Under the pieces are notes generated by a model. It ran no database searches, was not told where the DNA came from, and saw nothing but the letters and a program-made list of their open reading frames with translations. A program made the position numbers and the translations under genes. A stretch of DNA of 62,980 nt, counting the filler, from Reclinomonas americana ATCC 50394 (taxonomy: Eukaryota), in NCBI GenBank assembly GCA_048213135.1. It is 9 parts of 9 records of this genome, joined end to end, with 100 filler letters (N's around TTAATTAATTAA, not from the genome) between each part and the next. Parts side by side here need not be neighbours in the genome. Positions count along the whole stretch, not along the records: positions 1 to 14,335 come from AFZH01018053.1; 8 more parts are not named here. The stretch is one strand, 5' to 3'. Positions 1 to 49,538 of this stretch are shown here, piece after piece (within the stretch, counting starts at the first letter, position 1; every line of letters starts with the position of its first letter).

Positions 1-3000
1 ACTTGCTAACATCTCCACTAACGGCAGCCGCCTGCATCTGGGATCCGCGGCTGCCCGTGCTCCGACGATCCGACTGCAGTGCATTTTTCACAACATCGGA
101 AATGGTGTGCCCACCAGAATGCAGCGCTGGTGGCGGGCTGGCAAACTTCTGCAGCCTGATGGGCGGCGCGGGTTCGAGCGATTTCACGTATCCCAACCAG
201 CCGCTGCGTGCGGCGACAAGTAGACAACGATGTGAGCGGCGACAAATACACGGAATTGAAGCGTGGAGCAAATTCAACTCTCGATCCATGGCTTCCACCT
301 CCACTTGGCGCTCCCTGAATAGCGCCTCGATCCGCCGCACGTCTCGAGACTTGGAAAACAACATGATCACAGTGCGTTCAGGATCACTCTGTGCGGCAAC
401 TTTGATAAACGTGCCAACAAGCCCGCCCTCGGGGGGTATGCTGCAATTGTGCCTGATCACAAGCGCCAGTGATCTCCCGACGTCCGAATCGCCAAGCAGG
501 GCGCAGTACTGCGCGACCGTAGAGAAGTCAGTGCGACGACCGTGTTGCAGGCAGCACTGGTCACGAAGGCGACGCACGTAAGCAACAGCAATGTGCTCCC
601 ATCTGATATACACTGAGCACTCGTCTTGCACCGGTCGGCACGCGAGCTTAATTTCATTCTCCACTATAAGCACGGTGGCGACGAGGATCAAAACGAGAGT
701 CACCAAGCGGAGTGCAAGAAAGCGACGCAACTCAGAGTCAACGTCGCGTTTCCCACATTTTTGCGTGTGTGAAAGTGCACCTGTGCTCGAAAAACGCAGT
801 GAGAAAGCGCTCACGAAGACAGCCATCACCGGGAAAGCTCACCGCATCAAGTTTGATGCTTCTGCAACAAAAAGAATGGAGGGTCAGACAGAATGAGCGA
901 TGCCATGCAGGGAGCACTCCAACGATACTCACTGCCGTTGTGACGGAGCAGGGCGTTTAGTAGCCGGCTGATCCGCACTGTCACTCCGACCGTCATCAAC
1001 ATCATCCCTCGGGCGCTTGTTGGGCGGCTTGTTGGCATACGAGTTCATGGGGTCGGCCATTTTCTTCCGCGGCTTGCTTGCCTGCCCGCGTGAGACTTCA
1101 AGCACTGCATCGCCATCGTCGGCATCGCTGTCAACATTAACAACCTGCACCAGCAGTGCACGAAGAAGGGGAGCACGCGAGTGAGAAAATGAGACTTTTT
1201 TTGTCAAACTCGTGTTGTCTCTGATGCGCGCACCTCGCCAGCAGATAATCTTGGTGACGGTGACACCCCTGGTACCGTGTACCGTCGCGAAGTTTTGCCA
1301 GCCTCGTCAAACATGTTGTTTTGCTTGCCAGTCAGACTCATCACAGCTCACACACACACACGCAGACAACTGCGAGGACACACGCAATGTCAGTGTCAGC
1401 TGTGGTGCTCGAGCATCTCCTCCCTCCTTGTGTCATCTCCACACACACGCAAACGTGCACGCGCAAACACACATGAACTATGTAAGTGGGCGGAGGCAAA
1501 CCCCAATTTATCACACTCAACTGCGTACACCAACAACACACAGGAACTTGTTTCTCCGGCAGGTTGAATGCGTGTCCTCGCCCGTGCAAGTGTTGTGTTG
1601 CTTTCAGGTCTTCGCGCGTCTCTGTGTCGGCGACGACGGAGTGGTGATGGTATGGGGTCGAGTCGACGCGGGACATGGGGACATGGATTCAACCACGACG
1701 ACGTGCGTCGCTTCACTTAGGTGTGCGCCTCGAGAGACGCACACAATTCGGTCCACACCGGATGCATGTGCAAGGGTCGCCGCTCAGCATCCCCTGGAAC
1801 CATGCAAACGTCCGTGGGAAGCCGACTTTTGCGATGGTCCTCGGCGTGCTGCACGATAACAATTTTCTTTGCGGCCAGCACCTGGACCACAGAAAAGACG
1901 TATCCGACCTTGAACGAGGGCCCATCCCCGTCTGAGCGCACATGAATGGGTCGCCTCAGCTCCACAGTTGGCAGCATGGTGGTCAGCGGTCGGTCGCCGC
2001 CGCCGCCCGCCAGCGACCGCAATGGCAGCCGAGGTGGTGATACCGCCGCCGCCGCATGCAATGGTGGTGGTGGTGGTGGAGGCGGTGGAGAGAGGCCGTC
2101 CACCTCGACCGCCGCGGCGGCATCCGGGTCAGACAAATCCCCATCGTCGTCATCACCAACGTCGTCCTCTTCATCGTCGTCGTCGGCGTCATCGTCGGTA
2201 AATATGGGCGCCTGGGGCGACAAGAGCGAGCCTGTTGCTGTCTGGAAGCGGTTCGGATACACAGGCGTTGTGTTGTCGCTGGACGGCGTCATCTCCTGCG
2301 CGCTGGTGCGATCGTCACCGCCGCCGCCAGCCGCAGTGTCCCCGTCTGCTGAGTTGTCCCACATCCATCGCGGGCCCACCTCGTCATCCTGCGCGCAAAG
2401 CAAGCGTCACATACATCACGCCTGGTCAATGGCTGTGTGTGCGTGTGACTTACTTGCAGGGGCAAGAGAGAGCTGGACACGGGCACAGACGACGACATTG
2501 CCGGCGGCGGCGGCGGAGCGAGTGTCACAGGTGCGTTCGGAATCGCCAGCTGTTTCGCCCAGTCCACCGGCTCTCGCAGACGCAACAGCAGCGCAGCGGC
2601 ATCGATCACCGTTGGACGATAGATCACCAGCTGCACGGGGAATGACACCGCGTAAGCGGCGACAAAACTTGATAATGGACTTTGATCGCATCGTCGACAC
2701 ACACACTCACCTCATCGCCGAGACCAGCATCACTGCAGTGCAGCAAGCCGACGTGCTCCGGTCGCATGACCGCCTGCGTCACATCGGACGACACTTGAAT
2801 CGCTCTGTGCCGCACGCCGTGAGCTCGCGCACAACACACACCGCCACACCACGCAGCGTCAACGCAACTCCGACACCGTCATGAGGCCCATCACGAGGAG
2901 GGTGCGACTGAGATCAGCACTGTCACCCTTTTGCGTCAGGGTTGTCCTCTCCAACAGCTCAAACGGCAACTCGACCATCTGCACCGTCCATCGATAAGCA

Positions 3001-6000
3001 GAGCAGTACCGATGGTGGGCATGAAGGGGCACAGCACGTAACGGCATCGAATCCAGCGGCACAGCCCTCGACCCCTGTGAAGCGCAACGCCGATCCGACC
3101 AACGACACCTTCATCGACACGCAAGTCACACCCGAGGCATCTGCTGGTGGCAGCAGAATCGGTGGAGCACACAATACTGGACCACTGCGTGCACGCGCAT
3201 CAGCAGACAGTGTGAGTGTGTGTGCAGAGTGCGCGTGAAAACGCACCCGTTTTCGAAAGCGGCGTCATCCTCCGCACACCACATGCACAGGGCGCGATAG
3301 TCGGCGAGTGATTCGTGCTCGGTGGCCACCCATGTATGCAGCATGCGGTGCGACACTGTGCTGCAAACATACGAGGGCGTGCTGTCGGGTGCGGGTGCGC
3401 TGCCGCCGACTGTGCCCGAGATCAGCGTCGAAAAATCCAAGTGGCGCAAGGAGAGCGGTCGTCCAATGTTGAAGCGGCGAAGCTGCGGAGCGGCCTGGTA
3501 CTCGGGGTGACAGGAGGTGCCAGCCGTGTGCTGCAGCCCGTACACAGACGATTCAAGCATGCCGGCAGCGGGTCTGTGCCAGAAAACGGTCGGTGGCTGC
3601 ACGAAATTGCCTAACAAACACAACAACTCACGCAACATTCGTTGCGCATCTTCGTCGCGAAGCTCTAGACGCAGAAAGCACGGACCGCGGAGCAGTGCCG
3701 TGAAACTGGCGTTGATGAGCAGCAACTGCTGCTGCGCCACAGCATAGGTGTGCTGCTGGCGAATGGGTATGGTGGACAGCACCGTGCCCGTGTCTGTCAC
3801 CACCTGCAGACGGTCGGTCGGGCGAACTAGGGGAACACCGGCGGGCAACTTTGCCATCTGCCGAGGACGTGAGAAGTGAGCAGACAAAAACGGGAGACAC
3901 CACATGTTGAATGTAACACGCACCAAACACAACGAACAGCGCTGCAGAGGTGACATGGCGTGCACCATCCACTCGTTGCGCAGTACCGGCACCTCGAGCA
4001 TCATTTCCAGCGGGATCGGGGACGCCGCCGACAGCGCACACGTGTAGACGAGCTCCAGCACTGTCGAAAAGTGCTGTCGATGAGCGACAGACAGCGGTCG
4101 GCGTCACAAAAAAACGGGAATTAACGAAACATGGATCGATCCAGCACCCACTCTGGTGCAGCGTTCGTGATCGCTCTGACGAGCCCTCCAGACCGCAGGC
4201 CCACTCAAAGAGCGCCTGCCAGCTATCTCCGTCCTGTACAAATGCGCGCCCAGCATATGATATGAGGCCAACACAAGCGGAAAATGGGCGGCGACAGGAA
4301 GACTGACACGCAACTGAGAAGATCGCACGGGGAGTGGCGAGTGGCGTTCCGCGACCGCCGACCGGAGGCGTTGGTGCGACAGCAGCTAACGTGGCAGTGG
4401 CAGCGGCAGCAGACGCTGCCGTCAATGTGCCACGCTCGTCAGTGCGGCTGACAATGTTGGCCGCTCGTTGCATGTGCGACAGCTGCTGCTGACGCAGTCG
4501 AACACAGCGCTGTGCGTACTGCTCGCACAACTCACGCACTTCCTCCGAGTCGTCTCCGATCGTCTGCACACACTCCACTCGTCAGACACGGTCGTTTGTG
4601 ATACACACGTGTGTGCAAGCACCACGCAACCTCTCGTGCGACACGTGCAATCTTGTCGGTCAACAACTGCAGCGTCGAGGCGTCGTGCTCCCAGTGCTGC
4701 AGAAAGGCGCAGAGGGCGGAAACTGTGCGTGTGAACACACGATGAGAAATACGCAGCGTGGCCGTGTATCTTCTCCAGCACACGCACTGGCGGCCACCAA
4801 CAGTGGCGGGAGCGTGCTCGCACGAGCGGCCCAGTTGAAGGCTCCGTTCTCGTCAAACAACGTCGAGGCCATGGGCTGAGGGTGGCAATAAGGCAGGGTA
4901 ACAAAGCAATCGGGAAATAATCGACGTTGGCTCACCATCTCAGGGGTTTCACCAACGCGGAGGCAGCGCATGCTGGAGAGTATGGCTCGTTCATCTGCTC
5001 ACGGTACAGCATGAGATGCCATCGCCATTGCTCAAAACACACGCGAGGTAGTCCCACGTACGCACCGCGCAGGAGCGCAATGAGCAGCAGGATGAGCGAG
5101 TCCGAGAACGAGACTGCGCCATCGAATTCGTCGACAACATCGGGCACCGCACCGGCGCGATCACCGGCAAACTATTGTGCGACATCGTCAGACGACACGT
5201 GACGTGCAAACCCCACTACGGCGCGACTCACCGACACGGACGGACGCCGACGCCGAGTGCTGGTCACCAGTGCCATGAGCGTCTCATGGAGGCGCAGATT
5301 GGTGACGGATTCGCGGGCACTCTGCAATCCGAGATGTCTTGCGCGGCCTCGCCAGTCAGCATCATCAATTAGAGAGACACGGGAGAGCGTGATTGCTCAC
5401 CTCTGCAGGAGACGCTGCAAGAGAACGCACGGGTCGCCCTTTGGTCGCGGCGACTCTGGCAGTCCATAATGCAACGCCTGCACGGCCGGATGTGACTGGT
5501 AGTCTGTGGTCTCCCGCAAGTGCTCCAAGAACGCTGTGGCAAAGACCGGGAACTCCACCGACGAATGCATGGCACCGATTCGAGACGACCAAAAGACGCG
5601 CGCCTCCCGCAGCACGAAAATCGACGTTGCATCAAACACATTGTCCAGCGCCAGCAGTTGCACTGCAACGGCAGCGATGAGCACGAAAAGTGCCAAAGAA
5701 GCGAGTTGCAGTTCGTCGTCGTCGTCGCTCACCATGCAAGCACGTCGACTGGATGCGAGTCTGCAACAGCAACACATGCTGCCGCACATCGACCACATCC
5801 TGTTCCATCAGCGATCGTAGTCGCTTCACGCGTTCCGCATCGGGCGAACCGCGACCGCACCAGAAACTGCCGACCTCCGCCCCGTCACGATGCATCGCAA
5901 CCATGTTGCCGAAATCCTGCTTGATTCGATCCTGCCAACAAAGGAAGCATGAGACCACGCCAGCAAACCGCAAGCAGTGCAACAGAGAGCACGAGCGAGA

Positions 6001-6637
6001 ACCAGCACATGACTGGTGTCGAGAATGGCGTTGACCAACTCCCGAATGAGCTGCATCAAGTCGGCCCCTGTCACGTGTCATGACGACCCGGTGAGTATAT
6101 GGTGCGCGAGGGGGCAACAGCGCCAGCCGTCACGCAACGGCGATCGGGAGGCGCTGCACCCTCCAGTGCGATAGCAGCAGCGGCCGAGTCCACCGCCGCC
6201 GACTGCGTTGGCGAAGGCTGCGTAGGCAACTGGACATATTGCTGCTGCGGTGGCTGCTGCTGCTGCTGCTGCTGACCCAATGCCCGCGCACGGTACCTCT
6301 GTTGTGTCTGCAGTCGGCTCTCTTGCTCCAGCAGGTGACTCGGCAGTGACTGTGCGCGGATTGCGCGCGAAATGCATGAGTGACTTTTTGTTGATGAATT
6401 GTGATCTGTGCTCTGTGTATGGGGGCGACTCAACTCGCAGCAGTGGCAGCACAGCGGCGAGGGTGCGACAGGCGCCACGTGCGCGGGCCACCAGCTCAGG
6501 CTCAATGCCGCCAGTGTCTGTGTGTTGATCATGATGAGAAGAAGTGAAAGAGAGTGATGGGGGGATATCGTGGCCAACCGCTGAGGTAGTAGAAGAGGTC
6601 TTGTGACTTGGTGAGAAGTACTTGCCCCACGCCTTCC

Positions 6638-6639
<2 letters not shown>
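1..6639 (-). CDS. Large multi-exon hypothetical protein; 3' end runs off the window start
   Basis: ATG at 6639 (MEGVGQVLLTKSQDLFYYLS). Minus-strand ORF pieces chain through GT-AG introns (5826-6074, 5397-5798, 3628-4578, 3126-4061, 1717-2403, 929-1207). The apparent stop at 929 lies in a CA|GTGAGT donor, so the frame continues (SIKLDA-VHFHTRKNVGNATLTL...). No family recognised; could be more than one gene. Confidence 0.55.

Positions 6640-6640
<1 letters not shown>

Positions 6641-6680
<40 letters not shown>
6641..6680. repeat. (TC)n(AC)n compound microsatellite
   Basis: Directly visible between the LysRS stop and the next ATG. Confidence 0.95.
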
Positions 6681-6726
6681 TGAGGGCGATGATTGATTAT
6701 CATGACACAGGACAGCTTCGTTCGTT

Positions 6727-9369
<2,643 letters not shown>

Positions 9370-9459
9370 GATTGCGGCGATGTCCTGCTTCGTTGTCAGC
9401 GTCGAACTGATCACAATACGCCTTCTTTTCGTGCACGCGCACACCAACCGCCGTCGTGT

Positions 9460-10689
9460 ATGGCATCCTCCTCTGGTGCGTTATATGATTTGACCTCACG
9501 AGCACGAGCGAGACGCTTGTGCCTTGTGTCTGTGCACTTACGTGCAAGCAGAATCCCCGCGCACGTGTGTGATCTTTGTTCACGGGCGTCTCTCGACAAG
9601 TGAGGACGTATACGTAGGAGAGAACCTCCAAATCGAGCACCCAGAGGTCACAGTGCGCCACTTCGACCACCGTCATCTCATCAATGGTGATTTTGTCACC
9701 CGAGTTCTGCGGCGCGATATGCGAAAGACAATCGGGGAGCCTGGCAGCAGGTCACGTGTGGTAGTGGTTGGCTTTGACGTCGGCAGCGTGTTAATTGCTT
9801 CCGCGCTGCAGCAGCTTGACTCCGTCGAGCGAGGTACTTTCCATTTTGCTTCTCCATGTTCATCAGCTGCGGCCTCGCTCATGCGTCACGCCAGGCTTTA
9901 TCAAGCACATTGTCGCTGTGAACCCCATTGCAACGCGAGTGGAGGCTCTCTTGGTGTGTCACCGGATCGAGACGGCAAGTGCATCAGCCGATCTGGACGC
10001 GGAGCGGTACTTCATCCGATCACTGCCGTGGTCATCTAGATCTGGCATCGGGCCGTGGTACCTGTCGGAGCCAGACTCCACGGTACGGAAGACCGCACTT
10101 GTTACACAGGTTTGCAAAGCAAAATGACGAATATGATGAATACCGCAGCGTGGCCGACCTTACCTTATATCTTCCTACGTTGTCACCGTAGGCCGCGCTC
10201 GGGTCGTCGAAGGGGTTCACTCTGTCCGTGGAAGAGTCATGGACAGTCAAGGAGATTGACCAAGTTGGCGTGCCATCAAGCACACAGAAAGGGGAGGGAG
10301 GGAGCGACAATCCACTCGAGGCTGGCAGCCGATTGGCCAGCGAGATCACCAACATTATCGTCGAGCCCAGGGAGTAGAAAAGATATTGATCATATCAAGA
10401 AGAACAGTGGGGCAAGCATTGGGAAACTGTTACTTCTCTCACACCACACCACCATGAGCAAGTTGCACTCCGGCCTGAAGCTGTGCACCACCCACTCCCT
10501 TGCATCGTTGGACAAACATCGAGTACCTTGTACGTAAGCTTGTCGTGCAAACGTTAACGGGCATCTCTCGCCTTGCCCTGAGCCACCACGTCATGGGTTC
10601 CAGCAGCAGCCTTCTGCAGAAAGTCGACAAAGGCACCACACTTCCGCAAGGCCTTCCAGCTCACAATGTGGCGCTTGGAGTATATATGA
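9460..10689 (+). CDS. Alpha/beta-hydrolase-like protein; 3' exons uncertain
   Basis: IFVHG oxyanion-like motif, VVVGFDVGS nucleophile-elbow-like motif, IKHIVAVNP strand. The 3' exon chain was not fully resolved. Confidence 0.5.
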
Positions 10690-10760
10690 AGTGTGAGATT
10701 GACGGCCTCGGAGGACATTGCGTTCTTTGCCGGAAACCAACACGACGAGATCCGGCAAGA

Positions 10761-12042
10761 ATGGGCTTCGAGTGGCGTGTGTTTGTGGAGTGCACGGCAC
10801 TCTCACCCGCGGCCATCGCCGAGCACGGGCCCACCCTGCGCTCTCTGACAGCCCTCGACAGCATGTCCACACAGCGCGTCGCAACATTGCCGCCGCAGCG
10901 CACCGACATTTATGTGCCTTGTGATACGCGGTCTGTGCTCGCCAGTGAGGTATGGTGGTGGTGGTGGTAGTGTGCTTGCTCGCTCATGCGTGTGGAGCGC
11001 AGGATCGGGGTCAAGCTGCGCGAAGGCGATTTGGAGGTCAAGGTCCGACGATGCAAGGCGGCCGACGAGGAGCGCCGACAGACCACATCGCCACCGCAGA
11101 TGGTGGATCGGTGGAAGAAGTGGTCGGTGGAGTACAGTTCGCCTGCGGATGGTGTGGTAGTGTGGGGCGGCACACTCAGTCAGTCATTCAGGCACTGACA
11201 ACGGCAACGCAGGCGTCCCGATCAGGGTGGAAGATGTGCTGGAGGTGCTCGATCGCCTGGTGCAAAGCAAGATGAAGAGCAAGTACAGCCGACCGGTGGA
11301 GGAGTACTTGCAGCGGTAAGTGCGGGTGCGCGGCCATGCGGCTGCTGTTGCGCGCTCACTATTTGAGCAACAACAGCACGCGAGGAAGGCACGTGGTTGA
11401 CGCGGTCGCGACAACTGCGGCGGCCGGAAGCGACTCGACCGTGTTTCTGACGGAGCATGGCTCGTCGGCGGCTGGCGAGGATGATGCACCGCGGCGAGCC
11501 GAGTCGCCACAGCCACCAGCGTTGCGTTTCTTTCTCTCTGTCTCTCACTCCGCTTGCAGTCGGGATTGTTCCTCATTGTTCTCCGGGCGCAGGGTGCCAC
11601 AACACTTGGTGGGTGTGCAGAAGCGCCGTGTGCAGGCATTCGCGGCCGGGTTCAAGTCGGTGGTCGTGGAGCTGGCGTACCTCGAATGCCAGTTGCTGCA
11701 ACTCAACGGCGAACCTGTTACGTTTCTATGCTACCTCCACTTCCACCGCCTCGATCGCACTCTGAACCGTGCACGCAGGCCGCGGAGCACCGGAAACGAC
11801 TGTTCTTCTCGTTGTCGGTGGAAAGCGACAAGCTGGCCGACGTACAACACTTCCTGCAAGCCACCAATGTGCCGATGCGAGTCATGATGTTTGTAGAGTC
11901 GCTGCGTGAGCACGCAACGGCAGCGTCGCCTTCTCCTCTACTTCTCTGGTCCGGCTACCCGAAGCTGGCGATAGAGATGGCCGACGTGGACGACGACGAC
12001 GAAGAAGACGACGACGAAGTGTCCTCGCGTCCGTCTCAATGA
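10761..12042 (+). CDS. CYTH-like (triphosphate tunnel) domain protein, 5 introns
   Basis: The spliced product has EWRVF, RTDIY, IGVKLREG.LEVK, WKKWS, VQKRR, VELAYL, SVES and SGYP in the order expected for CYTH-like proteins. Confidence 0.65.
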
Positions 12043-12053
12043 AACCCTGTCAC

Positions 12054-14104
12054 ATGTTGCTCTTGCAGCGCGGACTGTGTCGCATACCAGGCCGTCTGCT
12101 GGTGACAGGCGGACGAGCGCTGCTGACCACTGGCACCACTGAAAGCACAGTCAAGTCGACTGTGGAAGCAGGCAGCACGACTGCATCATCGACCACACTC
12201 GACGATGCAGAGGAGTCGGCCACGATTCGCGAGATTAGAAAGTGTTGCGTGCACGCAGAGTATGCGTGTGTGTATGTGTGACTCGCACACTCATCGCTCG
12301 CACACGCATACGCAGCACTGGGTCACCTGAAGCCAGGCAAGGTGGTGGCTGAGTTGGATCGGCACATTGTCGGGCAGACGGATGCAAAGCGCGCTGTCGC
12401 CATTGCTCTGCGTTGCGTCCTCCAGCCCCCCCTGCTGCGCACTGTGTGCGTGCGTGCTACTGAGAGTGGGTGCAGGCAATCGATGGCGAAGAACGCAGCT
12501 GCCGCGCGGCGTGCGCGACGAGTATGTGCCGCGTAACATTCTCATGATTGGACCGACAGGTGTTGGCAAGACCGAGATCGCCCGACGAGTGGCCAAGCTG
12601 TGCGAGTCGCCCTTCCACAAGGTGGAGGCCACGCAGTTCACCGAGGTCGGCTTCCACGGACGCGATGTGGATTCGATCATTCGCGACATGGTGGAGAGTG
12701 CGATCGTGAGGACGCGCACCAAGGTGAGAAAGCGAAGAGGGCGACGCTTCTCCAGTGACGCCTCATCTTGAATGGGAGGGGCAGATGCGTGAGGGTCTCT
12801 CCGAGGATGTGGTGTTGGCGGTGGAGGAGCGCATTCTGGAGGCTCTCACGGGACCCGACAGTCGACCGGCCACACGCGACACCTTTCGCAACATGCTACG
12901 CGACGGCCAGCTGGAGGATCGAATCATTGCGGTGGATGTGCCGGTGCACCATTCGGGCGGTGGCGGTCGCGATCTCATGGACGGCGTTCTCGGCGGCTCC
13001 AGTCACGGTGGCGGTGGCGCCGGCGGTGACTCGGGACTGGGAGTTGCGTGACGGCAAGTGTCGTCGTGGTAGCCGCGACGAGATGGTAACATCGTCGGGT
13101 GTGGTGCGACAGAGACTGGACGACCTGGTCTCCAACTTTCGGCAAATGATGGGCAGCTCGGCCACACGGCGGGTCATGATGACCGTGCGGAAGGCACGCC
13201 CCATCCTCGAAGAGAAGGAGGCGGAGGCGCTGGTGAATGAGGAAACGGTGGCGCGTACGGCCATTGAGTTGGTGGAGCAGTCGGGCATTGTGGTGATTGA
13301 CGAGATTGACAAGATTTGCACGCCGGTCGGTTCGCGCGACGGAGCCGACGCAAGTGCCGAGGGCGTTCAACGGGATCTGCTGCCACTCATCGAAGGATGC
13401 TCCATCTCCACCAAGTACGGCAACGTGTCGACCGAGCACATTCTCTTTATCGCCTCGGGAGCGTTCACACATTGCAAGCCGTCGGATCTGTTGCCGGAGC
13501 TGGTGAGCCGCTGCACTGTTGCTGTCGTCGTCATTAGTGGTTGTGTTACTAACGTGTTTCTTTGTTCATGTGTGTGCATGTACTTTTCGGAGAGCAGCAA
13601 GTTGCGTGACTGTCGTGAAACGCGACACGCACTCACCACTGGGAACTCACGACAACAACGTGCACACAGGGTCGCCTGCCGATTCGCGTGGAACTCAAAG
13701 CACTCACCCGGCACGACCTCGCACGCATCCTGCGCGAACCCGAAAACAACGTGATCCAGCAGCAGACGGAGCTGCTGCGCACCGAGGGCGTCATTCTCAA
13801 GTTCACCGACGACGCCGTCGACGAAATCGCCCGCCTCGCCGCCGAAGTCAACACCACCGTGGAGAACATTGGCGCCCGCCGTCTGCACACCATCATGGAA
13901 CGCGTCATGGAGGAAGTCAGCTTCGACGCACCCGACATGGCCAAGAACACGGTTAGTCACGGGTGCAGGAAGAATCCGAAGAAAACCATGTGCTGAACTC
14001 GTGTTCTGTTGACCTTGCAGACGGTGATTGTGGACAAGGCATTTGTGCGAAGGCGGATCGGCGATATGCTGTTGAAGACCGACCTCACGCGCTACGTGTT
14101 GTAA
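12054..14104 (+). CDS. hslU: ATP-dependent protease ATPase subunit HslU/ClpY with a mitochondrial-type presequence (7 introns; alternative in-frame ATG at 12039)
   Basis: [99 protein letters not shown]-terminal DLTRYVL. Confidence 0.96.
13598..13600 (+). other. Predicted 3-nt micro-exon (CAA, Gln) of HslU
   Basis: cag|CAA|gttgcg between introns 13503-13597 (TACTAAC at 13547-13553) and 13601-13669; restores the conserved PELQGR motif. Confidence 0.8.
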
Positions 14105-14198
14105 GCGACGACGGAAGTGCGACAATGTAGAAGTCCCTGTGTCAGTTGTCTCCTCTCGTTTGGCGATCGATAGTGTGTGTGTGTGTGTGTGTGTGTGA

Positions 14199-14852
14199 AT
14201 GGAGGTGGATCCGCCTGCACCAGAGGCCGCAGTGCCCTCTGCCGCTCGCATTCTCGACCAGCTTCTTGCCGACGAGGATGCCTTCAGTGACAGCGACAGT
14301 GAAGGCAGTGGTCGCGGTCGCCGCCATCGTCGGGGNNNNNNNNNNNNNNNNNNNNNNNNNNNNNNNNNNNNNNNNNNNNTTAATTAATTAANNNNNNNNN
14401 NNNNNNNNNNNNNNNNNNNNNNNNNNNNNNNNNNNAAGGACAACACACGGACCACTGTGGCCGCTGGAGCGTCTGTGGCGGTGGCTCAGAAGAACACCGC
14501 CACCGCCAGATCTGGTGCGTTGCCCTCCTGGTCTCTCACTCTGTCACGATCGTCGTGCGTCCCTCATTGTGCGACAGCCCCTGCAACGTGTTGGCGACTC
14601 GCCTTTCCTCAAGCACCGACTCAATGTGTTTGTCAAGCACTCGCGCGATGGAGTGGTGTGTCACGCCTCTCTGCATGTTCTTACCCGCGTCCTCGCTGAC
14701 GCGTGTGCGTGCAGCACGAACTGTCGCCCGCCGACGCCAAGCACGCTGAGCTGAGGAGACACATGAAGGAGAAGCTGCTGGGAGACGATCCGTTGCTCTC
14801 GTCGACAGACGAGGATGACGAGGAGAGAGAAGCGACACGGAACCGGAGGTAG
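14199..14852 (+). CDS. Hypothetical protein fragments on both sides of a gap (one gene or two)
   Basis: ATG 14199 (MEVDPPAPEAAVP...) is open into the gap. After the gap, three spliced exons end ...DEDDEEREATRNRR*. Confidence 0.45.
14336..14435. other. Artificial assembly gap spacer
   Basis: N44-TTAATTAATTAA-N44. Identical spacers at 21663-21762, 31530-31629, 37272-37371, 45768-45867, 47602-47701, 55009-55108 and 61745-61844. Confidence 0.97.
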
Positions 14853-14915
14853 TAGCGTGTTGTGTATCGATTTGCAGCGCGCGCGCCGTGGTAAACTCGA
14901 CGCTGTGTGCTGCTG

Positions 14916-16802
<1,887 letters not shown>

Positions 16803-17340
16803 GCATAGCAGAAGCGTGCGTTGCTGTGAAGGCGATGGTGAGCACCGACAACTCGAACGCGAATTCGCGAATGTTCGATCGTTCGGATTTGAACCAGTTT
16901 TCGAAGTCGAAGGGAGCAATGCCTCTGCTACAGCAACTTCATGCAAGCAGAGACACGCAGACAGATGCTGGTGCAGGTGCTGCGCGTCGAATCAATCGGG
17001 GTATGCAGGATTTCGAATTCGAATTCAGCGCGCGCCCGCGAGCTCAGCGTTCTCCTGCAGACCTGCAGCTGCAGTGTAAGCCTGCTTGTGACCGCTTTCC
17101 CTCATCTGCTGTCGCCTGCTTGCATTCGTGCGAGGCTCCACGCGCAGTTTTAAATTTTGCGACAACTTCGCGTGGGCAAGACCACCTGCAGCATCGCCAG
17201 CAGCTCCACAGTTCTGCCACCATGAAACGAAGCATCACCTACCGCAACGCATCGTTTAAAGCCTCGTACCCGTTAACACAAAGAAAACGCTGTCCCACCA
17301 CCAGTGAGTGAGTCCCGCGCTCACAACACGCACGCAAAGC

Positions 17341-20300
17341 ATGTCTCGTCGATACGAGATGCACGATCGCCGGCATGGTGATGGTGGCGACGGTGGTGGC
17401 GGCAGTGGCAGTGGTGATTACCACTCACGTGGACCGCGGCAGTACAACGAAGGACGGCGATGTTGCGTGTGGACATTACGCGCCCGTCTCTTCTTCTTTC
17501 TCTCCTCGCCCTCTCTGTCTCTCGCCACTTCCCACTTTGACAAGTCGCACATTTCTCTTCTGTGATCTCGTCGCTTTTCGTTGTCTCTCAACAAGAGTCC
17601 ACTTGTCTCACGACTTTTTTCATGCAAATACATGCACAGCGTGGGGTGGTGGTGGCGATGATGCGCGTCACTATCAACCGCGTGGTGGTCGCGGTGGTTA
17701 CCGCGCACGAGGAGGCCCGCGTGGTGGAGGTTTGCCGCACACATCACTTTTTTTGTCGCCCATCAAAGTGTGCATTCAAGTCGTTGCGCAGGTCGCCCGG
17801 GAGACCGACGCAGCTATGATGGCGGCGGCGGCGGTGGTGGTGGTCACTATCGTCCAAGGGAGGAGCCTCTGCCGCCACCTCCTCACGAGATCGAGCTCGA
17901 CAACATTCGCAATGTGCTGGTCGGCATTGGCGATGTGGGTGCGCATGCGGTGGACGAGCAGCTGTCGGCGCTGGCGGACTTCCTGCTGGATCAGCCCGCG
18001 GATAATCACGACGACATAATCTACCTGTTGCTGCGATGGTGTGTGTGTGCGCGCGCGCGATGAGTGTGGGCGCATGTGCTCATTCTACGTGCAGCATCGA
18101 TGAGCTGTCGACCAAGACGCCGATCTACGGCACGCTGATCGGGCTGATGCACCGAACGGACCCTGGCTTTACTGAGCGGCTGTTGCGGCGATTGGTGAGC
18201 GGCCTGCGTCGGCACTGGCAGAGGGGGCGGTGGTTGCAGGCGAAGAACTCGGTGCGCTTTGTGTGCGAGCTCGCCAACTCGTGCGTGGTGCGCGAGTCGG
18301 ATGTGCTGCGGATGCTGGTCATGTTCGCCGATGAGGCACGCAAGGAGGGTGTGCGACGCGAGCGAGCCGACTACTTTATGCTGCTGCTGCTGTCTGCGTT
18401 GCCGTGGGTTGCGTAAACAAACTGCATGCTTGTTTTCTGTCGTATGGATGCCGTGACTGACTTGCCACGCTGTGCAGGTTGGCAAGACCTTGTACAGTGG
18501 AAAGAAGGCCGACCTGCTGGATCTGATTACGGGTGTGACGGCGTACATGGACGCACGCGCAAAGGACGTGGACCAGTCGGCGCTGGCCATTTTCAAGAAT
18601 GACGGAGTTGCGCCAGAGTCTCTCTGCTCGTGTGCGCAGTTGTCGTCACTCATATTTATTCGATTGCAGAGAGAGGCGTACGACATGCTGGCGTATGTGT
18701 GGGGCTGCATTAGGGTGCTGCGACAGCGCGACTGGCAAGTGGCGACCACCTTGCAGCCGTACAAGGCGCGCATGGCCGAGTTGCACAAGCTGCACCCGAT
18801 CGAGTTGCCGGAGATTGTGATTCCAGCGGATGTGCGTTGTGATTGCGGTTGACTGAATCGAGTTGTGCGTCGTGGCTAATGATGGTGTGTGTGTGTTATT
18901 CGCAGGATCCCTCTGCACAATACCCCGTGTGTCGATCACAACTGTGGCTGTTTCCGGTGTCGGAGAAGATTGCACTGCCAGGTGAGTTGGTGGTGGAGAT
19001 TAATTTGCAGACGCTGCCGTCATGGCGAGCTCACGAGCCATCGGTCGCCTTGCACATGCGCAGTGGACGAGGACATGGTACGCACGGAGCTGGACCCGGA
19101 TCTCTTGGTCGCACGCGAGTACATTGTGGAGACGCTGTACTTTTTCAACGCCACCCCCGACGAGTGCGTCCGCCGCCTCGCAGCACTCCCACTCAACTTT
19201 GAATATCGCCTGTTGTTGATTGAGGTGTGTGTTGGTTGTACAAATACACTCGCTGTTCCCCCTAAATCTGAACCGCATCTGCAGACGCTGATTGGCGAAG
19301 TGCTGCGATTGCCGGTGCCACCTTTCCGCATGCCGTACTACACGCTGCTGATGGTGGCGCTCACCAAGGCCGACGCGGGTCTGGCGCCCATGGTGAGTCT
19401 GCTTGCTCATCACGTTGTCATCCTGCCGCATGCTCAAACATCGGTGTGCTGCGGTGCAGTTTGGTCGTGCCATCAACAGAATTGCGGCGCGGGCGGACGA
19501 CATGGACTTGGAGTGCATCGATCGTTTCGCGTCGTGGTTTGCACAGTACATTTCCAACTTTGCGTTCCAGTGGATGTTCACCGCCGACTGGTAACGAACT
19601 GCACGCGCATTTCCTATTCCCACCGGCCTCGTGGCTCATTATCAACGCGCGCGTGCGCAGGGTGTCGTTTGCGGAGGAGCCAGCATTGTCGCCACGACGG
19701 TACATGCTGCAGCAGGTGATTGACAACTTTGTGCGCCTGTCGTTTGCGGAGCGCATCCGGGAGATACTGCCGGCGGCGCTGCACGAGTTTGTGGCCGCGG
19801 AGCCTGCGCCGCTGTTCTCGTACGCCGAAGAAGGTTTGCCGCGTGTGCACGAGCATGTGTCGATTCATAACTTCTCATCGCGTGACAGAGGTGGCCGGTT
19901 CGCGTGTGGCGAATCAACTGGAGGAGATGTTCAAGCGCAAAGCCCCGGCCGACGCGGTGTTGGCGTTCTTCAGAAAAATCGCCGGCGAGCGCGTAGAGGA
20001 GATGGAGGAGGACGGCGACGATGCCAGCGCTGCTGCCGCCGCTGCTGAAGTACCCGAGCCTGACGAGCTGATCGAGAGTGAGCAGGAACGTGTGAGGCTC
20101 TTTACGCAGTGCCTGTTGCTGTTTGGCAGCCGCAGCTTGACGCACACGGTGACGGTGTTGGAGCGGTACCGCGCAGTGTTTGCCGAAATGTGCTCACACG
20201 GCATGGCCTGTCGCACATCGGCTCTGATGGCAGTTGCCGAGGTGTGGGCGCTGTCCACTCAAGTTGCGTGCCCATGCAGATGCACACACGCATTATCATC

Positions 20301-21220
20301 GTGGAACAGCTCTCATTCCTCTTGCACAGTACATTACAATTGTCGTGGATCGACTGCTGACGTACATGATTGTTGACTGCTCGGCCATCATCCACTGGCT
20401 CTTCTCGGAGGAGATGGCGCCGATGTTTGAGCAGTTTTGTGCCTCGTCGTTGTCTTTCTTCCGCCTCTCACATTGCTCAGCTCATGGTGCTGCTGCTGTC
20501 GCAGAGGTTTCATGTGGGAGATTATGCGCGACACCTTTTACAAGTCGGTGGCGCGCATCGATGTGGTGGCCAGTGATTTGGCCAAGGCCGAGAAGCTCTT
20601 GCATCGCGAACACAGGAAAGCTGCCCGTCATGGTCGGTCGTCTCCTCCCGCGTCGGACTCGGCGCCGTCGTCAGGCGACGAGGCTGTCGACGAGGGCGGG
20701 CGTGCCGATGAGAGCCTCGAGGACCGCATTGAGCGCATTCGTGCCACGCTGGAGCAGGTCAAGCGTGAGCAGCGCGACATGTTCCTCATCCTGTTCCAGG
20801 TACAACAACAAAGCAACAGCGCCACTGTGTGTTGTCACTTTGCCGTCGTGCGCTGACACTTTCTCTTTTAGCGCTTCACGATGAGCGTGGATCGACGCAT
20901 CTCGGAGGGTGCCGACGATGCGTGGGTGACGTACACGCTGCAGCGCATGAAGGAATTCGGTCGCAAAGTTACGCGCGCTCAGTGGAGCACGAGCGACCTG
21001 CGCACTCGATCGTTCTGACTGACCTCGGTGGGCTGCACAGTTCCGCGCCGAGATCGGCTCGTACCTGCGCACCCTCGGCGAAGTTGTCTTTACCAGCGAA
21101 GTCGATCCGGCCATTCGCGACGAATTCAATCGGTGGCGTGATATTTACACGGAGCGCACGCTGTCGCTGTCGGGTCTGCACACAACGTCCAAGTTGCTGA
21201 GTTGCTTCCCCAACATGTGA
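17341..21220 (+). CDS. NCBP1: Nuclear cap-binding protein subunit 1 (CBP80), 15 introns
   Basis: KTPIYGTLIGLM, RADYFMLLLLSALPWVGK, DRFASWFAQYISNFAFQW, FGSRSLTHT, IVVDRLLTY, FMWEIM; all introns join in frame. Confidence 0.9.
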
Positions 21221-21310
21221 AATGAAAAAAAGCAACAACGTCGAGGTCAACTCCGCAACGGGTGCGTCCTGTGTTCAAACGAATCATTTTTTTGTGGAGA
21301 AGAAGAAAAG

Positions 21311-21621
21311 ATGTCTGCGCAGCATCGTTTGTCTGTGTTGGAGAAGCACTTGAACCCCGTCGGTGCGGGAGGCTCGCGCTCTGCGGAGGAGGAAGAGAGG
21401 GTTGTCGCGGCTCCCATGGCCGCGGAGATTGATGCCGGAGTTGGCGAGGATGAGGATGGAGAGGAGCATGTTGACACGGGTATGTCTTTGCACACACGCA
21501 CACGCACGCACAGAGGGGAGAGAGAGTGAGAGAGTGCGAGAGATGCAGTCACAGGGAGCGAGACGCACACACTGCAGTGCGTTGTGTGCTTGTTGCGCTC
21601 TCCCTGCGTATGCGTGTGCGT

Positions 21622-21662
<41 letters not shown>

Positions 21663-24336
21663 NNNNNNNNNNNNNNNNNNNNNNNNNNNNNNNNNNNNNN
21701 NNNNNNTTAATTAATTAANNNNNNNNNNNNNNNNNNNNNNNNNNNNNNNNNNNNNNNNNNNNCTCGTTCTCTGTCAAGCGTTTGCAGGGCCTGTTTGCGT
21801 CCGAGTACCCCGAACTGCGTGTGGCCATGCTGAAGTTGCGTCGTTCTGCATCTCCCTCTCTTGTATCCATCCCTACGTGATGTGTGACTGGTACGCTTGC
21901 AGTTTGTTCCGTGAGCCGATCTTTGCGCCGCGCTACGACCTGGGCTACCAGCAGTTCCGCGAGGTACATCTTGCTGTTTTGCTCCCTCTTTTCCTCCCCA
22001 TCAAGTCTGAACCCTGTTGCGTCCTCCCGCTGCAGTTGACGCTGCAACGGTGCAAGCGTGTGGCCGCGAGCGGTCTCATCAACCTCCGTGACTACAAGAA
22101 GGAGCCTCTGCGGTACCTCTCTGGTCTGGAGTACGCGGCACTCGTCGACTCGTCGATGGCCACCAAGCTCGGCGTGCAGTTCTCGCTGTTTGGCGGCTCG
22201 GTGCTGTCGCTCGGCTCCGAGCGTCACGATCACCTGGTCGACGACATTGGCGCGCTGCGCCTGCCGGGCGTGTTTGCGCTGACGGAGTTGGGCCATGGCT
22301 CGAACGTGCGTGGCATTGAGACCACGGCCGTGTACGACCACGCCACGCAGGAGTTTGTCATCAACACTCCGAATGAGACGGTTCGCGTGTGTGCATTGTA
22401 CAACGTGCTTGTGAAGATTCTGACATCCCTTGCGACGTTTGCAGGCGCAAAAGTGCTGGCTCGGCAACGCCGCCAAGCACGGCGTGATGGCCACCGTGTT
22501 TGCACAGCTGACGCTCGGGGGCGAGGACAAGGGCATCCACGCGTTCTTGGTGCCGATCCGCAACGCCGACACGATGGAGCCGGTGCCGGGTGTGCGCATT
22601 GCCGACAATGGCGCAAAGATGGGCCTAAACGGCGTCGACAATGGTCGCCTGTGGTTCGACAATGTGCGCATTCCGCGCGAGAACCTGCTGAACAAGTTCA
22701 TGGACGTGGACGCCAACGGCAACTACGTCACGGCGCTGGCGAGTGCCGATCTGCGCTTTGCCACCATGATTGGTGAGTGGTGATCCTTGCGCTCTCCTCT
22801 CCACTCCGCATCTCATCTGTGGCATCGGTGCAGGCGAGCTGGTGGGTGGACGTCTGGCAATCTCTGGTGGATCGCAGACGCTGTGCAAGGCGGCACTGAC
22901 CATTGCCATCAAGTACGGCTCCACTCGCCGCCAGTTTGGCATGCCGGGCGAACCGGAGACGTTCATTCTGGACTACAAGACGCACCAGATGCGCCTGTTC
23001 CCGCAGCTGGCCAAGACCTACGCGTACCACTTTTTGTTTGCCGACGCCGCCGTCAAGTACGCCAACCGCTCGCCGGCGACGATGAAGGAGGTGGGTGGAG
23101 GTCGTAGTGGCGGAGGCGGTGGTGCGATGTGATGCGCGAATCTCATTGTGGTGATGACTGCAGGTGCACGTGCTGTGTGCCGGTCTCAAGCCGCTGACCA
23201 CGTGGCACAAGGTCGACACGCTGCAGAATGCTCGCGAGTGCTGCGGTGGCATGGGCTTCCTGGCCGCCAACCGCATCGGACCGTACAAGACCGACACGGA
23301 TGTGGAGCAGACCTATGAGGGTGACAATGGTGCGAAGAGGAAAAACCGTCGATCTTCTTGAAGATGATTTGGCTGACTCGATCGTCCCCGCGCAGTGGTG
23401 TTGCTGCAGCAAGTGACACGCTCGCTGCTGTCGGACCTGAAGCGCGACATGCGCTCTGGTGGCAAGCTGTCGGCCGTGCTGAAGGTGGCCGAGCACGAGT
23501 TCTGGCCGTACCTGCACGACAAGAATCCGGTCAAGCGCCGCATGCTCAGCGATGTGCGTCAACACCAATTCTCCTTCCCCTATTGTGGTTGGTACTCACA
23601 CTAGTGTTGGTGGCACAGGAAAAGACCAGCGACCCGCGGTTCTACCAGCGTGCGTTCGAGTACCGCCAGTTCAAGATGCTGATGAAGCTGGCGGCCAAGT
23701 TGGAGAAGTTGTCGGCGTCGCGACAAATGACGCCGCTGGAGGCGTGGAACAACTGCCTCGACCTGGTCATTGACACGGCCCTGGCGTACATGCACAAGTT
23801 GGTTTTGGAGAAGGTTCGTGTACATGCGCGTGTGTAATTGCAGCTGATTGTGTGTCATGGCGCGCTCACCCTTTCTGATGCAGTTCCTGGAGGGCATTGA
23901 GAAGGCACATGCTGGCGACCGCGACATGCTGCGCGTGCTGTGCTCGCTCTACTCACTCAACTACCTGGAGGAGAACATGGGCTGGTACCTGTCGAACAAG
24001 TACTTTGCGCCGAGCAAGGCCGACGCCATCCACGAGCAGATTCTGCGCCTGTACGACGTGATCCGCCCGGTGGCAGTGGACCTGTGCAACGGTTTTGGCT
24101 TGCCGGAGGACCTCATCGGTGCTCCGATTCTCGGCGATTGGGTCGAGGCCATGTCGTGCGTGCACATACTGCTGCTGCTGCTGCTCCCTCCCTTGTGTTT
24201 CAGTCGTCTGACTTGCGGGTGCGTTAACAGGTGGCACAACACACCCGAGGCCAAGGCCGCGTCAGGGTCGTCGTCCTCATCTGGCACTGCAGCCGCCCCG
24301 TCCGCATTCGACATGTCACGCGCCTCACGCAAGTGA
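21311..24336 (+). CDS. Peroxisomal acyl-CoA oxidase with N-terminal PTS2; interrupted by the gap at 21663-21762
   Basis: [65 protein letters not shown]. The first exon before the gap carries RLSVLEKHL. Confidence 0.92.
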
Positions 24337-31529: not shown

Positions 31530-31629
31530 NNNNNNNNNNNNNNNNNNNNNNNNNNNNNNNNNNNNNNNNNNNNTTAATTAATTAANNNNNNNNNNNNNNN
31601 NNNNNNNNNNNNNNNNNNNNNNNNNNNNN

Positions 31630-34600
31630 GGTGATGGTATCGTAGTAAAAGACCGGAGCGAACTCCTGCACAGCAAGCACGACTGAGCACAACGGGAACA
31701 CCTGCACGCAGCGGCGCTGTCGTGTGACACACGCACCGACTTTTGCTCGCGCTCCAGTGTCCGCCGCGCAACACCATGCGGCACTTGTAATCTGTGTGCC
31801 AACCGATCCACATGATCAGCACGAGTGGAGAGGAGAATGCACGAGATAACACACACCTCTTTGTGGATTCCGTGGTCAAATACACGGCACGCGAGTCATC
31901 GACTTGAGCTGCATGCACAGGAGCAATCAATATCGCTCCCAGTGACACGTACACTCTGTGGCGCCACGACATACCTCCGACTTGGACGAAGAATGCAACC
32001 GCCGGATGCTCATTCCGCAAAAGCACCGAGCTGCGGTGCACATTCGGCTCATCGACACGTACAAATGGCGGATACATCTGCAATACACGAGAGGGAAGGC
32101 GCTCAGCAAACGCAGCAGCACGCATGCATGTACTCTCGCTGCGCGGAGTACCTGCCCAACACTGTCCGTCCGTGTCAAGGCGATTTCGCTGGCCAGCAAT
32201 CTGTGCGACACGGCGTGTGAGACGAAAACAAACGAGCTCACACAACGTGAGCACACACAAGGCGATGCGCACCGCTGGAGACGCTGATCAACTGGCGGCG
32301 CATTAGGCACGCTCAATGTCGGCGGGGTCACGTGCAGCACACTCGGCGGCACAGCCAATCGATCCAGATCCGCAAAATCGGCCATCTCAGCGTACAAGGT
32401 CTGGGCGACCAGACCGGCTTCGACACGCACAACCAGCGGCACCGTGAGCTGCCGGAAACAGATGCGCGCTGCGTGGAAAAACAACTGCAGGTCAATGGGA
32501 GAGCTCTACCGAGTCGGTGAGGGAGAGGCAACGCACTCGGGCGGTCGGTTCCTGGTGGCGGCTCGTCGGGCGGTGCCGTGTACTTGATGTTGAACTTGCG
32601 CAAGTACTCCTTGACTCTGTGTATATGTGAGAAAGTGTGTTGCAAGTTGGGTGTGCGTAAATGTCGGTGGCGCAACTCGGCGAGCTTGGGTCGGCGGCGT
32701 TCCACGCGCGTCCACGTCCGTCGTCCGCGACCAGCTCGCCCACCGCGGCGATGCTCATGGTCGACGCCGTGCACTGCAGTGGCCACAAGTCAGCACGCGC
32801 ACAACAACTAATACTAATTGGTCCGCCGGAAACGCACCACCAAGCTGCATCTGCTTCTCGAAAAACGTGACCACAGTCTCGGCATCCACTCGCACAATGA
32901 CGGTGCGCGTCTCGCCTGGATTAATGGGCTCGTTGAACTCGACAACTTGCCCGAACGGACACGATTGCTGTGCGAGTGGAGGTTGAGCCCCGAGTGCGAC
33001 AATGGTGACTCGAAAAAAATGAGGAAACGGAGCACACATACCTCTGCGCTGCGGATAGTGACGTGCAAATCCTGCAAAATCTTGCGATCAAGAGCCAACA
33101 CACTCGGCGCGAGAACCGACGGTGCTGCGACTCCCTTGGCGCCGACGACCGGCTTGACCGTGGCAGTGGCTGCGGTGGTGCGAATGTGAGCGACACCTGG
33201 ACACGACAAGCACGGCAGAATTGTTGAAAATTCATCACCAGCTGGATGGGCAGGAGCCGCGGACGATGCGGGGCGCACTGGTGACGCTTGGCGCTGGTAG
33301 CCGGCAAACTGATTGTTGAAGGAGAGAGCCCTCGAGCGCACTGAACAAACATTCGAATCAATCAGCACGCACTGACCCCACGTCCCTTCTCGCAATTCAC
33401 ACAAAGACGCAACGGGGTGCGACAGTCGACCCCGAGTTGAAGGCACTCGCAGGGCGTGCTCCAGCAGTGTCACCAGCAGCGGTCGTGAACGGTCCCGCGT
33501 GCGATACCAGATGACCGGCAGGCTGCACCATAGGTGACGCGGAATCGCCGGGGCGAGCAACTGCGAAGCACAAACTGAGCAAGGCGTGCGCGTGAAGAAG
33601 GCACACGTGCGACACTGCGAGCAGACTTACCAACGAAAGTGGCATCGGAGTCAATCGACTCGTCGTCTGTCGACGAATCCCCCAGAGACTCGTCGCCAAA
33701 CTCGTGTCCCGGTGGCAGTCGGGCGATTGGCGGCCGGAAACTGCACACACACTCACGATCAGTGACAACGTTGCACGGTAACCAGAGCAAGCTTCACTTC
33801 TTACACAACTCTTTCAGCATGCTGTTGCTGATATCCGAATCGACGGACACCACGACACTGGCCACCGGGTGAAGGCCGATGTTGCTGAGCAGCAGCTGCG
33901 TCTCGATGCTGTAAACCGCGCATCGTTAGCACCATCGACGGAGGTGGTCAGCCGACAAGAGAGGCGCACGCACGTTTCACCGGGAAACAGGTCGAACTCG
34001 GTGCTGTACGGCAGCTCAAATGTGGCTGTCAGAGTCGGCAGAGGCGGCAACACGTCCATCGTCGGCACCGGATTCGCTACAATCACCGTCATCGGGCTGT
34101 GACGACCCCGAGTGAGACAAGTGTGCATTTCTTCTGCCCGTTTCCACAACACGTACCAGTTGGGGCACTCACGGCACTTGTACTCCACGTGGCGAATGTA
34201 CAATGTACCGGAAGACACAGCCGCGCCGCGGATGCGAATGTGCTGTCGTGAGCGTGACGGCACAAACATGACGCGCGGTTCGGCATTGAGACGGAAAAAG
34301 TCGGTGCGCACGGGCGTTTCGGCCGTCGGCAACGTGCCCTCGGGCACCAACTGGCACCCGAGTTGCACATCGATAATGTTCAGATCGCACGCCAGCGGAT
34401 TCTCAAAGCCCACTTCCACCTCGCACAGCTCGCCCTCGCTCCACTTGATCTGCACGCGACACATATGCCATCAGCTTCTTGCCTGCATGCAGCAATCTAC
34501 GCAGCAGACACGCGCACCTTTTGTCGATCCTTCTTCTTCTCAAACGGCGAGTAAATGAAGATGCTCTTGCGTGCTCCCGCCAGCTCCTCCACGTGCGGCT

Positions 34601-49193: not shown

Positions 49194-49538
49194 CACGCCA
49201 CGCAGACCCGCCTCGCACCTCATCCCCTCCAGCTTTGCTTTTCTCTTTCTCTTTTGATTCCCGGTAATCGTTCGCAACAGTGTATCCCGTGCACGGTAGT
49301 GTTTGTGTAACAATCCATCCGAAGGAGAGAGATGTCGCTGATGAGCTCAAAGACCCCGCGCACGCTGACGAATACCAGCGCGAGCGAACAGTGAGCGTTA
49401 CTGGCGATTTCGCAGTTGTTGTCGCGCATCGCTGAGAGCAGGCAAGTGCTGCTCTGGCCATACAATGCTCTCCCCCTCTCGAGTCCTCACACCATGCTTC
49501 CTCTCAAGCAGAAGAAGAGAGAGAGAAAGGAAGAAAGC

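Follow-up and report, generated by a model that had tools for sequence, protein, structure and literature searches.

A predicted three-nucleotide exon in the HslU gene of Reclinomonas americana and a candidate variant U1 that fits its donor

Exons of about one codon are already known from several systems. Among the 3-nt microexons of animals are the Gly exon of cytohesin-1/2 (PMC6314551) and those of mouse Ncam and Drosophila troponin T, as cited in PMC8042270. For plants, PMC8831610 describes coding microexons of 1–15 nt, including the 1-nt exons of APC11 and VPS55, and puts forward a sequential removal of the flanking introns. Codon-sized microexons are furthermore arranged in arrays in the NACHT-ANK genes of Tuber melanosporum (Iotti et al. 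2012, as cited in PMC4986451). With regard to donor recognition, U1 arms that co-evolved with their donors have been described in Entamoeba and Mastigamoeba balamuthi, together with the coexistence of a standard and a modified U1 in Physarum polycephalum (bioRxiv 10.1101/2022.06.08.495308). As 3-nt exons are thus established, what sets apart the exon treated here, a single CAA codon in the HslU gene of the intron-dense protist Reclinomonas americana, is its donor, for which a second, longer-armed U1 seems to be responsible. The titles and abstract openings searched, with most subscription journals outside reach, contained no report of the GTTGCG donor class or of the HslU microexon.

The window, i.e. 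the whole stretch of DNA that was analysed (62,980 nt), consists of several contigs with spacers between them; positions 1–14335, which hold HslU, are G000:C2586. The gene around the 167-nt gap was identified by three of four tested exons, which hit TIGR00390 in colinear order (model positions 30–106, 197–320 and 322–413) with summed scores of 409 bits, compared with a whole-protein cut-off of 362; the fourth, the I-domain exon, gave no TIGR00390 match. It is an intron-rich nuclear gene, single-copy except for a second haplotype and, according to the gene model, otherwise intact beyond the gap. The model begins at 12316 and leaves out the N-terminal exons upstream of this position. The HslV partner is encoded in the genome, with intron-split matches on C27 and C29. 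A mitochondrial HslU exists in trypanosomatids (PMC4488524), and the product of the present gene is likely mitochondrial. A separate ClpX-like match lies in a 465-codon open frame at G000:C1:2142590-2142817, on a contig of more than 2 Mb which is possibly bacterial DNA in the assembly. The features of the HslU locus are as follows, slashes marking exon-intron borders.

12316–12411, 12476–12723 and 12785–13042, plus strand: early HslU exons (gene model, spliced profile alignment), followed by introns of 64, 61 and 70 nt, two of which begin GTTGCG
13113–13502, plus strand: HslU exon 5' of the gap, ending ...DLLPEL (TIGR00390 197–320; 5' boundary taken solely from the gene model)
13503–13597, plus strand: predicted intron A, 95 nt, donor G/GTGAGC (canonical U1 fit), acceptor CAG
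13547–13553, plus strand: TACTAAC, candidate branch of intron A, 45 nt before the acceptor (unusually far), kept in haplotype 2
13563–13569, plus strand: TGTTCAT, higher-scoring candidate branch of intron A, 29 nt before the acceptor, kept in haplotype 2
13592–13594, plus strand: GAG, weak tandem acceptor 3 nt 5' of CAG, the use of which would give Gln-Gln
13598–13600, plus strand: predicted 3-nt phase-0 exon CAA (Gln), two codons 5' of the Arg of GRLP
13601–13669, plus strand: predicted intron B, 69 nt, donor A/GTTGCGTG (variant U1 fit), acceptor CAG
13644–13650, plus strand: AACTCAC, consensus branch of intron B, 20 nt before the acceptor
13670–13951, plus strand: HslU exon 3' of the gap, opening GRLPIRV (TIGR00390 322–413)
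14021–14104, plus strand: final HslU exon including the stop codon (spliced profile alignment, gene model)

At the last HslU intron the window's donor, GTTAGT (13952–13957), is replaced by GTCAGT in haplotype 2, i.e. donor position +3 is free where the exon ends in G. Further genes of the window, assigned by Pfam, are in order a class II tRNA synthetase (LysRS, 6726–9466), an AAA ATPase (14915–16684), a MIF4G-like gene (17340–21220) which we take to be NCBP1-like, an acyl-CoA oxidase/dehydrogenase (21300–24336), TRAPPC9/Trs120 (31629–37225) and SRR1 (53025–54215); two tandem arrestin-domain genes with nearly equal exon sizes occupy 49538–52891 on the plus strand.

Read across the gap, the sequence is ...GAG CTG/gtgagc...gagcag/CAA/gttgcgtg...cacag/GGT CGC, with CTG ending at 13502, GT at 13503, CAG at 13595–13597, CAA at 13598–13600, GTTGCG at 13601–13606 and AG ending at 13669. 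The sequence-only reading had proposed that splicing 13503–13669 as one 167-nt intron drops a Gln, and that CAA divides the span into 95 and 69 nt; both statements proved exact. Without CAA precisely one aligned position is lost, since the flanking exons pass from 320 to 322 in TIGR00390 and from 322 to 324 in E. coli HslU (PDB 1g4a), and the protein would lack this residue if CAA were not an exon. The Arg of GRLP that follows the Gln codon is presumably the arginine finger of HslU. By size and signals (internal, at most 27–30 nt, complete signals on both sides) the candidate is a microexon of 3 nt between GT..CAG introns, and profile, structure numbering and alignment all show that it is needed for colinearity with homologues. 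The description of both introns as normal-sized holds for intron B (69 nt, against a median of 68 nt for modelled introns) but less so for intron A, a rather long one: about 10% of the 682 introns modelled reach 95 nt or more, and it marks the upper limit of the 57–95 nt spanned by 35 homology-backed introns. These 35, taken from HslU, acyl-CoA oxidase, LysRS and PARP, remained from 40 aligned introns after five in poorly aligned stretches had been dropped.

The spacing at this site is fixed, and the Gln is conserved yet replaceable by Val. Among 120 homologues, EL/EF-Q-GR[LF]P is present in 113 and ELQGRMP in one, a further two run off past ELQ, and four are uninformative (early end or no anchor); a deletion at the Gln position was found in none of the 114 informative homologues. 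Two loci came out of a metagenome scan for HslU genes in which GT directly follows the Leu codon; both run through this point uninterrupted as ELVGRLP, so that the Gln of PELQGR, previously called conserved, is indeed so but not invariant, and this single scan brought up no relative that shares intron A. The two HslU genes with Val before Gly-Arg lie in the L013:1500 and L014:1500 regions of metagenome_contigs. The two run-off clusters (18 members among the matches listed) continue, where the motif is present, as ELQ-V or ELQ-A followed by non-homologous residues, which suggests that other eukaryotes may have an intron directly after the Gln, at the place of intron B. The second haplotype (C8890, 95.6% identical) keeps CAG-CAA-GTTGCG as well as both branch candidates of intron A, with about ten substitutions and two small indels across introns A and B. 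Intron divergence between the haplotypes is low (28 of 427 nt), such that a 10-nt core would stay unchanged about half the time by chance, and conservation of the CAA exon between them consequently lends weak support.

The splice signals on the two sides are unequal, with 7.3 and 12.3 bits for donors A and B, and 5.2 and 10.3 bits for acceptors A and B. The donor of intron B ranks in the top 1.2% of 570 strong introns; the acceptor of intron A is weak, 14% of 696 normal introns scoring as low. Branch sites in this genome follow the consensus CT(C/G)A(C/T) at a median of 19 nt from the acceptor. The perfect TACTAAC to which the sequence-only reading had drawn attention is present, and at 13547 it is the sole copy on either strand of the window, but it is probably not special: the motif occurs in one of 696 normal introns, a best branch as far as 45 nt from the acceptor is seen in 0.8–1.7% of introns, and TGTTCAT at 29 nt scores better. 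A gene finder self-trained on 426,529 nt (the window and 62 G000 stretches) predicts the CAA exon, its first seed set having contained introns A and B and its later rounds only introns between exons of at least 40 nt. RNA structure around the CAA exon is unremarkable (z −1.22). An origin of introns A and B by duplication was ruled against, as they have just 7 nt in common, and the idea that CAA had been picked to avoid a second CAG acceptor was suggestive, not significant (CAA is the minority codon, 757 of 2643, and occurs at 6 of 34 phase-0 exon ends). Judged from the sequence evidence as a whole, CAA is predicted with very high confidence to be spliced in, as a single-codon exon with a GTTGCG-class donor, which agrees with what had been proposed; the fuller explanation, by which the nuclear HslU gene has a genuine 3-nt exon, probably constitutive and processed by the steps set out further below, is one that we hold with high confidence.

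The donor of intron B belongs to a sizeable class. GTTGCG opens 124 of 696 modelled introns and four of the 35 homology-backed ones, intron B among the four; with GTTACG included, the GTT(A/G)CG donors amount to about 19% of introns. Their use depends on the last exon base, 16 of 462 after exonic G versus 115 of 234 after A, T or C, as expected from a U1 arm with U opposite position −1. A search of G000 with RF00003 returned three full-length U1 genes, one with a canonical arm and two with an identical variant arm.

L006:1501-1673 (C343), minus strand: canonical-arm U1 gene, arm AUACUUACCUGG (RF00003)
L004:1501-1654 (C429) and L005:1501-1654 (C479): variant-arm U1 genes, arm AUACGUAACUUGG (RF00003)

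All three have the U1 fold, an Sm site and an identical stem-loop 4; the variant gene matches the full-length model (positions 1–166, E 3.5e-14) with stem-loops 1–4 and the Sm site. Both types fall below the Rfam gathering cut-off of 69.5, the variant with 64.0 bits and the canonical-arm copy with 63.7. The variant arm is complementary to AA/GUUACGUAU and forms 11 contiguous pairs with the microexon donor, worth −13.0 kcal/mol with 12 arm bases and −10.7 with 11, arm base 12 probably belonging to the closing helix. Against −10.7 kcal/mol with the variant, the duplex of this donor with canonical U1 reaches −1.4; for the donor of intron A the order is reversed (−8.1 canonical, −1.2 variant). Over 131 GTT(A/G)CG donors the means are −1.1 kcal/mol with canonical U1 and −9.2 with the variant, which is preferred by all 131 (partly by construction, the class being defined by that motif) versus 89 of 540 others. 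The variant, devoid of the canonical 5' arm, is thus a candidate gene for an RNA that would work like U1 with a new specificity.

The donor had been described as shifted; the atypical class is real, but it is better read as matched by a second U1 than as an out-of-register target of the ordinary one. An alternative keeps the exon but has ordinary U1 recognise its donor with a shift or bulge in the pairing, or dispenses with U1 there, the variant gene being minor or silent; it is unlikely in our estimate, although it survives best among the alternatives. Shifted and bulged U1 registers are known in humans (PMC9311317), the variant lies under the Rfam cut-off, and the other small RNAs are of standard type: a DNA search of limited sensitivity gave just three identical U6 copies with the standard ACAGAGA box and no variant U6, and only standard branch-pairing U2 arms were found. 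Against it speak the mean duplex energies given above and the consideration that decay would hardly be expected to leave a copy with its fold, Sm site and stem-loop 4 and at the same time to make its arm exactly complementary to one in five donors. With only standard U6 found, the hand-over of the GTTGCG donor to U6 would have to be out of register or loose. The two distinct U2 genes, at L196:1501-1699 and L197/L198:1501-1717, score 114 and about 85 bits, and U5 gives a weak match with the usual loop. No separate branch type was found for the GTT(A/G)CG class, branch motif, branch distance and length being equal to those of the main class, which, as far as a U12-type (minor) identity is concerned, speaks for the major spliceosome.

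Removal of intron A via canonical U1 and of intron B via the variant, with the strong donor protecting the exon, is therefore not the only reading of the locus, but we consider it the probable one on the strength of the complementarities. Each of the two short introns would be recognised alone, in line with the intron definition proposed from the sequence, which is a reasonable supposition, and one removed after the other, since three bases cannot hold two spliceosomes at once. Canonical U1 would open intron A; the variant U1, with its 5' arm AUACGUAACUU, would open intron B by pairing with AA/GUUGCGUG over 10–11 contiguous bases, and this near-maximal duplex would mark intron B such that the exon is protected from skipping despite the weak acceptor of intron A. 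The exon itself would have arisen by crowding, i.e. by the gain of two introns three bases apart, and not as a regulatory switch.

The frequency of such exons can be estimated from the other tiny exons. Of 505 credible internal exons (normal flanking introns and good signals), one measures 1–6 nt, namely the HslU CAA, and seven measure 7–15 nt, compared with 1.6 per base of length at 31–60 nt; tiny exons are depleted about tenfold, yet not absent. A strict genome-wide pattern gave 14, 12 and 11 hits at 2-, 3- and 4-nt spacing (8, 7 and 5 in reversed controls), hence no excess of 3-nt spacing over 2 or 4 nt in this search. The 12 hits at 3-nt spacing are seven distinct sites, five of which are modelled as 3-nt exons; divided by a pattern sensitivity of 2.1%, these five give a rough estimate of about 230 3-nt exons per haploid genome, and 1 in 505 leads, again roughly, to a number of similar magnitude, provided that the assembly is about twice the size of the haploid genome. 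The expectation that more such exons hide in double-length introns is accordingly borne out in part: other 3-nt exons do emerge from the genome-wide pattern, but the rate is low, with the single case among 505 exons and none in 20 strong unsplit introns of 115–260 nt, where no pair came near the HslU score (best 12.7 versus 17.5 bits). The tiny exons considered are listed here.

L159:1524-1526: 3-nt phase-2 exon of an Rh/ammonium transporter, inside a W-x-F-W-P-S-F-N stretch, with GTTGCG donors on both introns
L165, reverse complement 1520–1522 and 1876–1878, minus strand: two 3-nt exons, of 17 modelled, of a mitochondrial carrier
L163/L164, reverse complement about 1030–1960, minus strand: array of about 12 consecutive 3–6 nt phase-0 exons between Cys/His-rich exons
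L162:1526-1528: 3-nt exon in a RhoGEF domain (gene model only)
L170:1530-1532: 3-nt exon in an unknown gene (gene model only)
L173:1527-1530: 4-nt exon near the end of a gene which we take from its motif to be PARP-like (gene model)
L183:1528-1529: 2-nt exon in an unknown gene (gene model)
Window 27970–27959 and 26402–26392, minus strand: exons of 12 and 11 nt in a PARP gene, which has two further exons of 26 nt (homology-backed)

For the Rh transporter (L159/L161) the match to RhAG leaves off at 219 and is taken up again at 222, while the exons on either side have just three bases to spare, and a 3-nt exon is therefore needed. Both 3-nt exons of the carrier (L165/L166) were recovered on alignment to one homologue, P0272, with lenient costs and with one adjacent junction at odds with the gene model. 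The haplotypes of the L163/L164 array differ in at least one codon, the aligned part of the PARP gene contains 16 introns of 57–82 nt, and the PARP-like gene at L173 gave no Pfam hit. Two modelled 14-nt exons on different contigs (L020:7708-7721 and L060:3615-3602), with long exons on either side, are identical in their last 12 bases, and their genes are probably paralogous. A preference of microexons for the variant donor was not supported: in the L163 array, a locus picked for having a GTTGCG donor, four of the 11 listed exons use it, and the choice tracks the last exon base. Introns after tiny exons are somewhat longer (median 79.5 versus 67 nt; n = 18, 11 of them from one array), which may reflect a space constraint.

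These exons also bear on the idea that the HslU exon is a regulated cassette, the skipping of which would give an inactive subunit that damps the HslU ring. The exon is frame-neutral, adjoins the catalytic Arg and has a weak acceptor, and cytohesin-1 offers a precedent for a 3-nt exon under regulation (PMC6314551); with a donor among the strongest (top 1.2%), no regulatory signal seen, and further 3-nt exons spread over unrelated genes and all three phases, which is what random crowding of introns predicts, we regard such regulation as improbable. The wider proposition, that two U1 specificities coexist in the major spliceosome, one for exonic-G donors and one for GTT(A/G)CG donors whatever the last exon base, and that a strong donor independent of exon bases permits exons down to one codon or less, some 200 of them 3-nt exons per haploid genome, seems to us evenly balanced between right and wrong.

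The competing solutions within the gap fare worse still. One is a single 167-nt intron, with the residue lost from the protein and the internal CAG-CAA-GTTGCG present by chance. Genuinely long introns do occur, 34 of 682 modelled introns measuring at least 160 nt, 20 strong ones contain no internal pair, and the position tolerates Val. The spliced profile aligner, which works with flat splice scores, no minimum exon length and AG acceptors only, chose the 3-nt exon in both haplotypes at an intron cost of −9 and favoured a one-residue deletion over it at −14, from which the margin given to the exon by homology alone is about 14 bits. Nevertheless, neither the 114 informative homologues nor the two Val genes show a deletion, the remaining HslU gene is intact and single-copy, and among 3000 simulated 167-nt introns, in which the real first 8 and last 40 nt were kept, 23 had any in-frame pair of 3–15 nt, five an equally strong 3-nt pair and none of those a Gln-coding one; CAG-NNN-GTTGCG is likewise absent from 40,405 nt of normal intron interiors. 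Loss of the residue is very improbable on these grounds. The gap contains only two in-frame, stop-free pairs of an acceptor with a GT donor, in both haplotypes, namely CAA after CAG and CAGCAA after GAG, and CAA is the only in-frame solution that pairs a CAG acceptor with a GT donor. Use of the GAG acceptor, exclusively or in alternation, would give a 6-nt exon CAG CAA (Gln-Gln) that is in frame in both haplotypes; since GAG terminates just 7 of 696 introns, scores 0.05 versus 5.2 bits for CAG, and no homologue has two residues at the site, we give this reading equally little credence. Finally, a Gln supplied by CAG at 13667–13669, where CAG GGT likewise reads Gln-Gly, would demand one 164-nt intron ending in CA, and can practically be dismissed: every homology-anchored junction examined is GT-AG (the aligner permitted AG only), and a complete GT-AG solution is at hand.

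The CAA exon matters beyond its size. Ordinary annotation would drop a residue beside the catalytic arginine, and an intact enzyme would look broken. Fixed by homology, the exon is a good positive control for the one-codon exon arrays proposed in this genome, and a test piece of 200 nt joins two long-standing questions, how spliceosomes deal with an exon that is too short and whether a second U1 serves its own donor class genome-wide. If two U1 types are indeed at work, the 3-nt exons would encode indispensable single residues in housekeeping proteins and also make up long arrays of single codons; flanked by one intron for each U1 type, the HslU Gln would report on such a system most cleanly.

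In comparison with known systems, the gene agrees with HslU (ClpY) as represented by TIGR00390 in its colinear exon order and in the presence of HslV in the genome, and differs in being an intron-rich nuclear gene. With the 3-nt microexons of animals it shares one codon between two GT-AG introns, frame-neutrality and a position within a folded domain; theirs are alternatively spliced, whereas the HslU exon, in a housekeeping enzyme, is predicted to be constitutive, adjoins a catalytic residue and is flanked by two introns of less than 100 nt. Like plant microexons it is required for the correct protein, is missed by annotation and is proposed to have its two introns removed one after the other; those exons have GTRAGT-type donors and are shared across species, in contrast to a GTTGCG donor and an intron A for which the metagenome scan gave no relative sharing it. 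Codon-sized exons link it to the arrays of Tuber melanosporum, and the present genome has an array too (L163), but the HslU exon is isolated, sits in a conserved enzyme, is fixed by homology and does not serve diversification. As in Entamoeba, Mastigamoeba and Physarum, the 5' arm of U1 is altered to complement an atypical donor of the organism. In Entamoeba and Mastigamoeba this is a same-register substitution in a single U1, while the arm found here is one base longer, GUUACGU, with a U opposite exon position −1, and the variant stands beside a canonical U1, the two donor classes being split by the last exon base.
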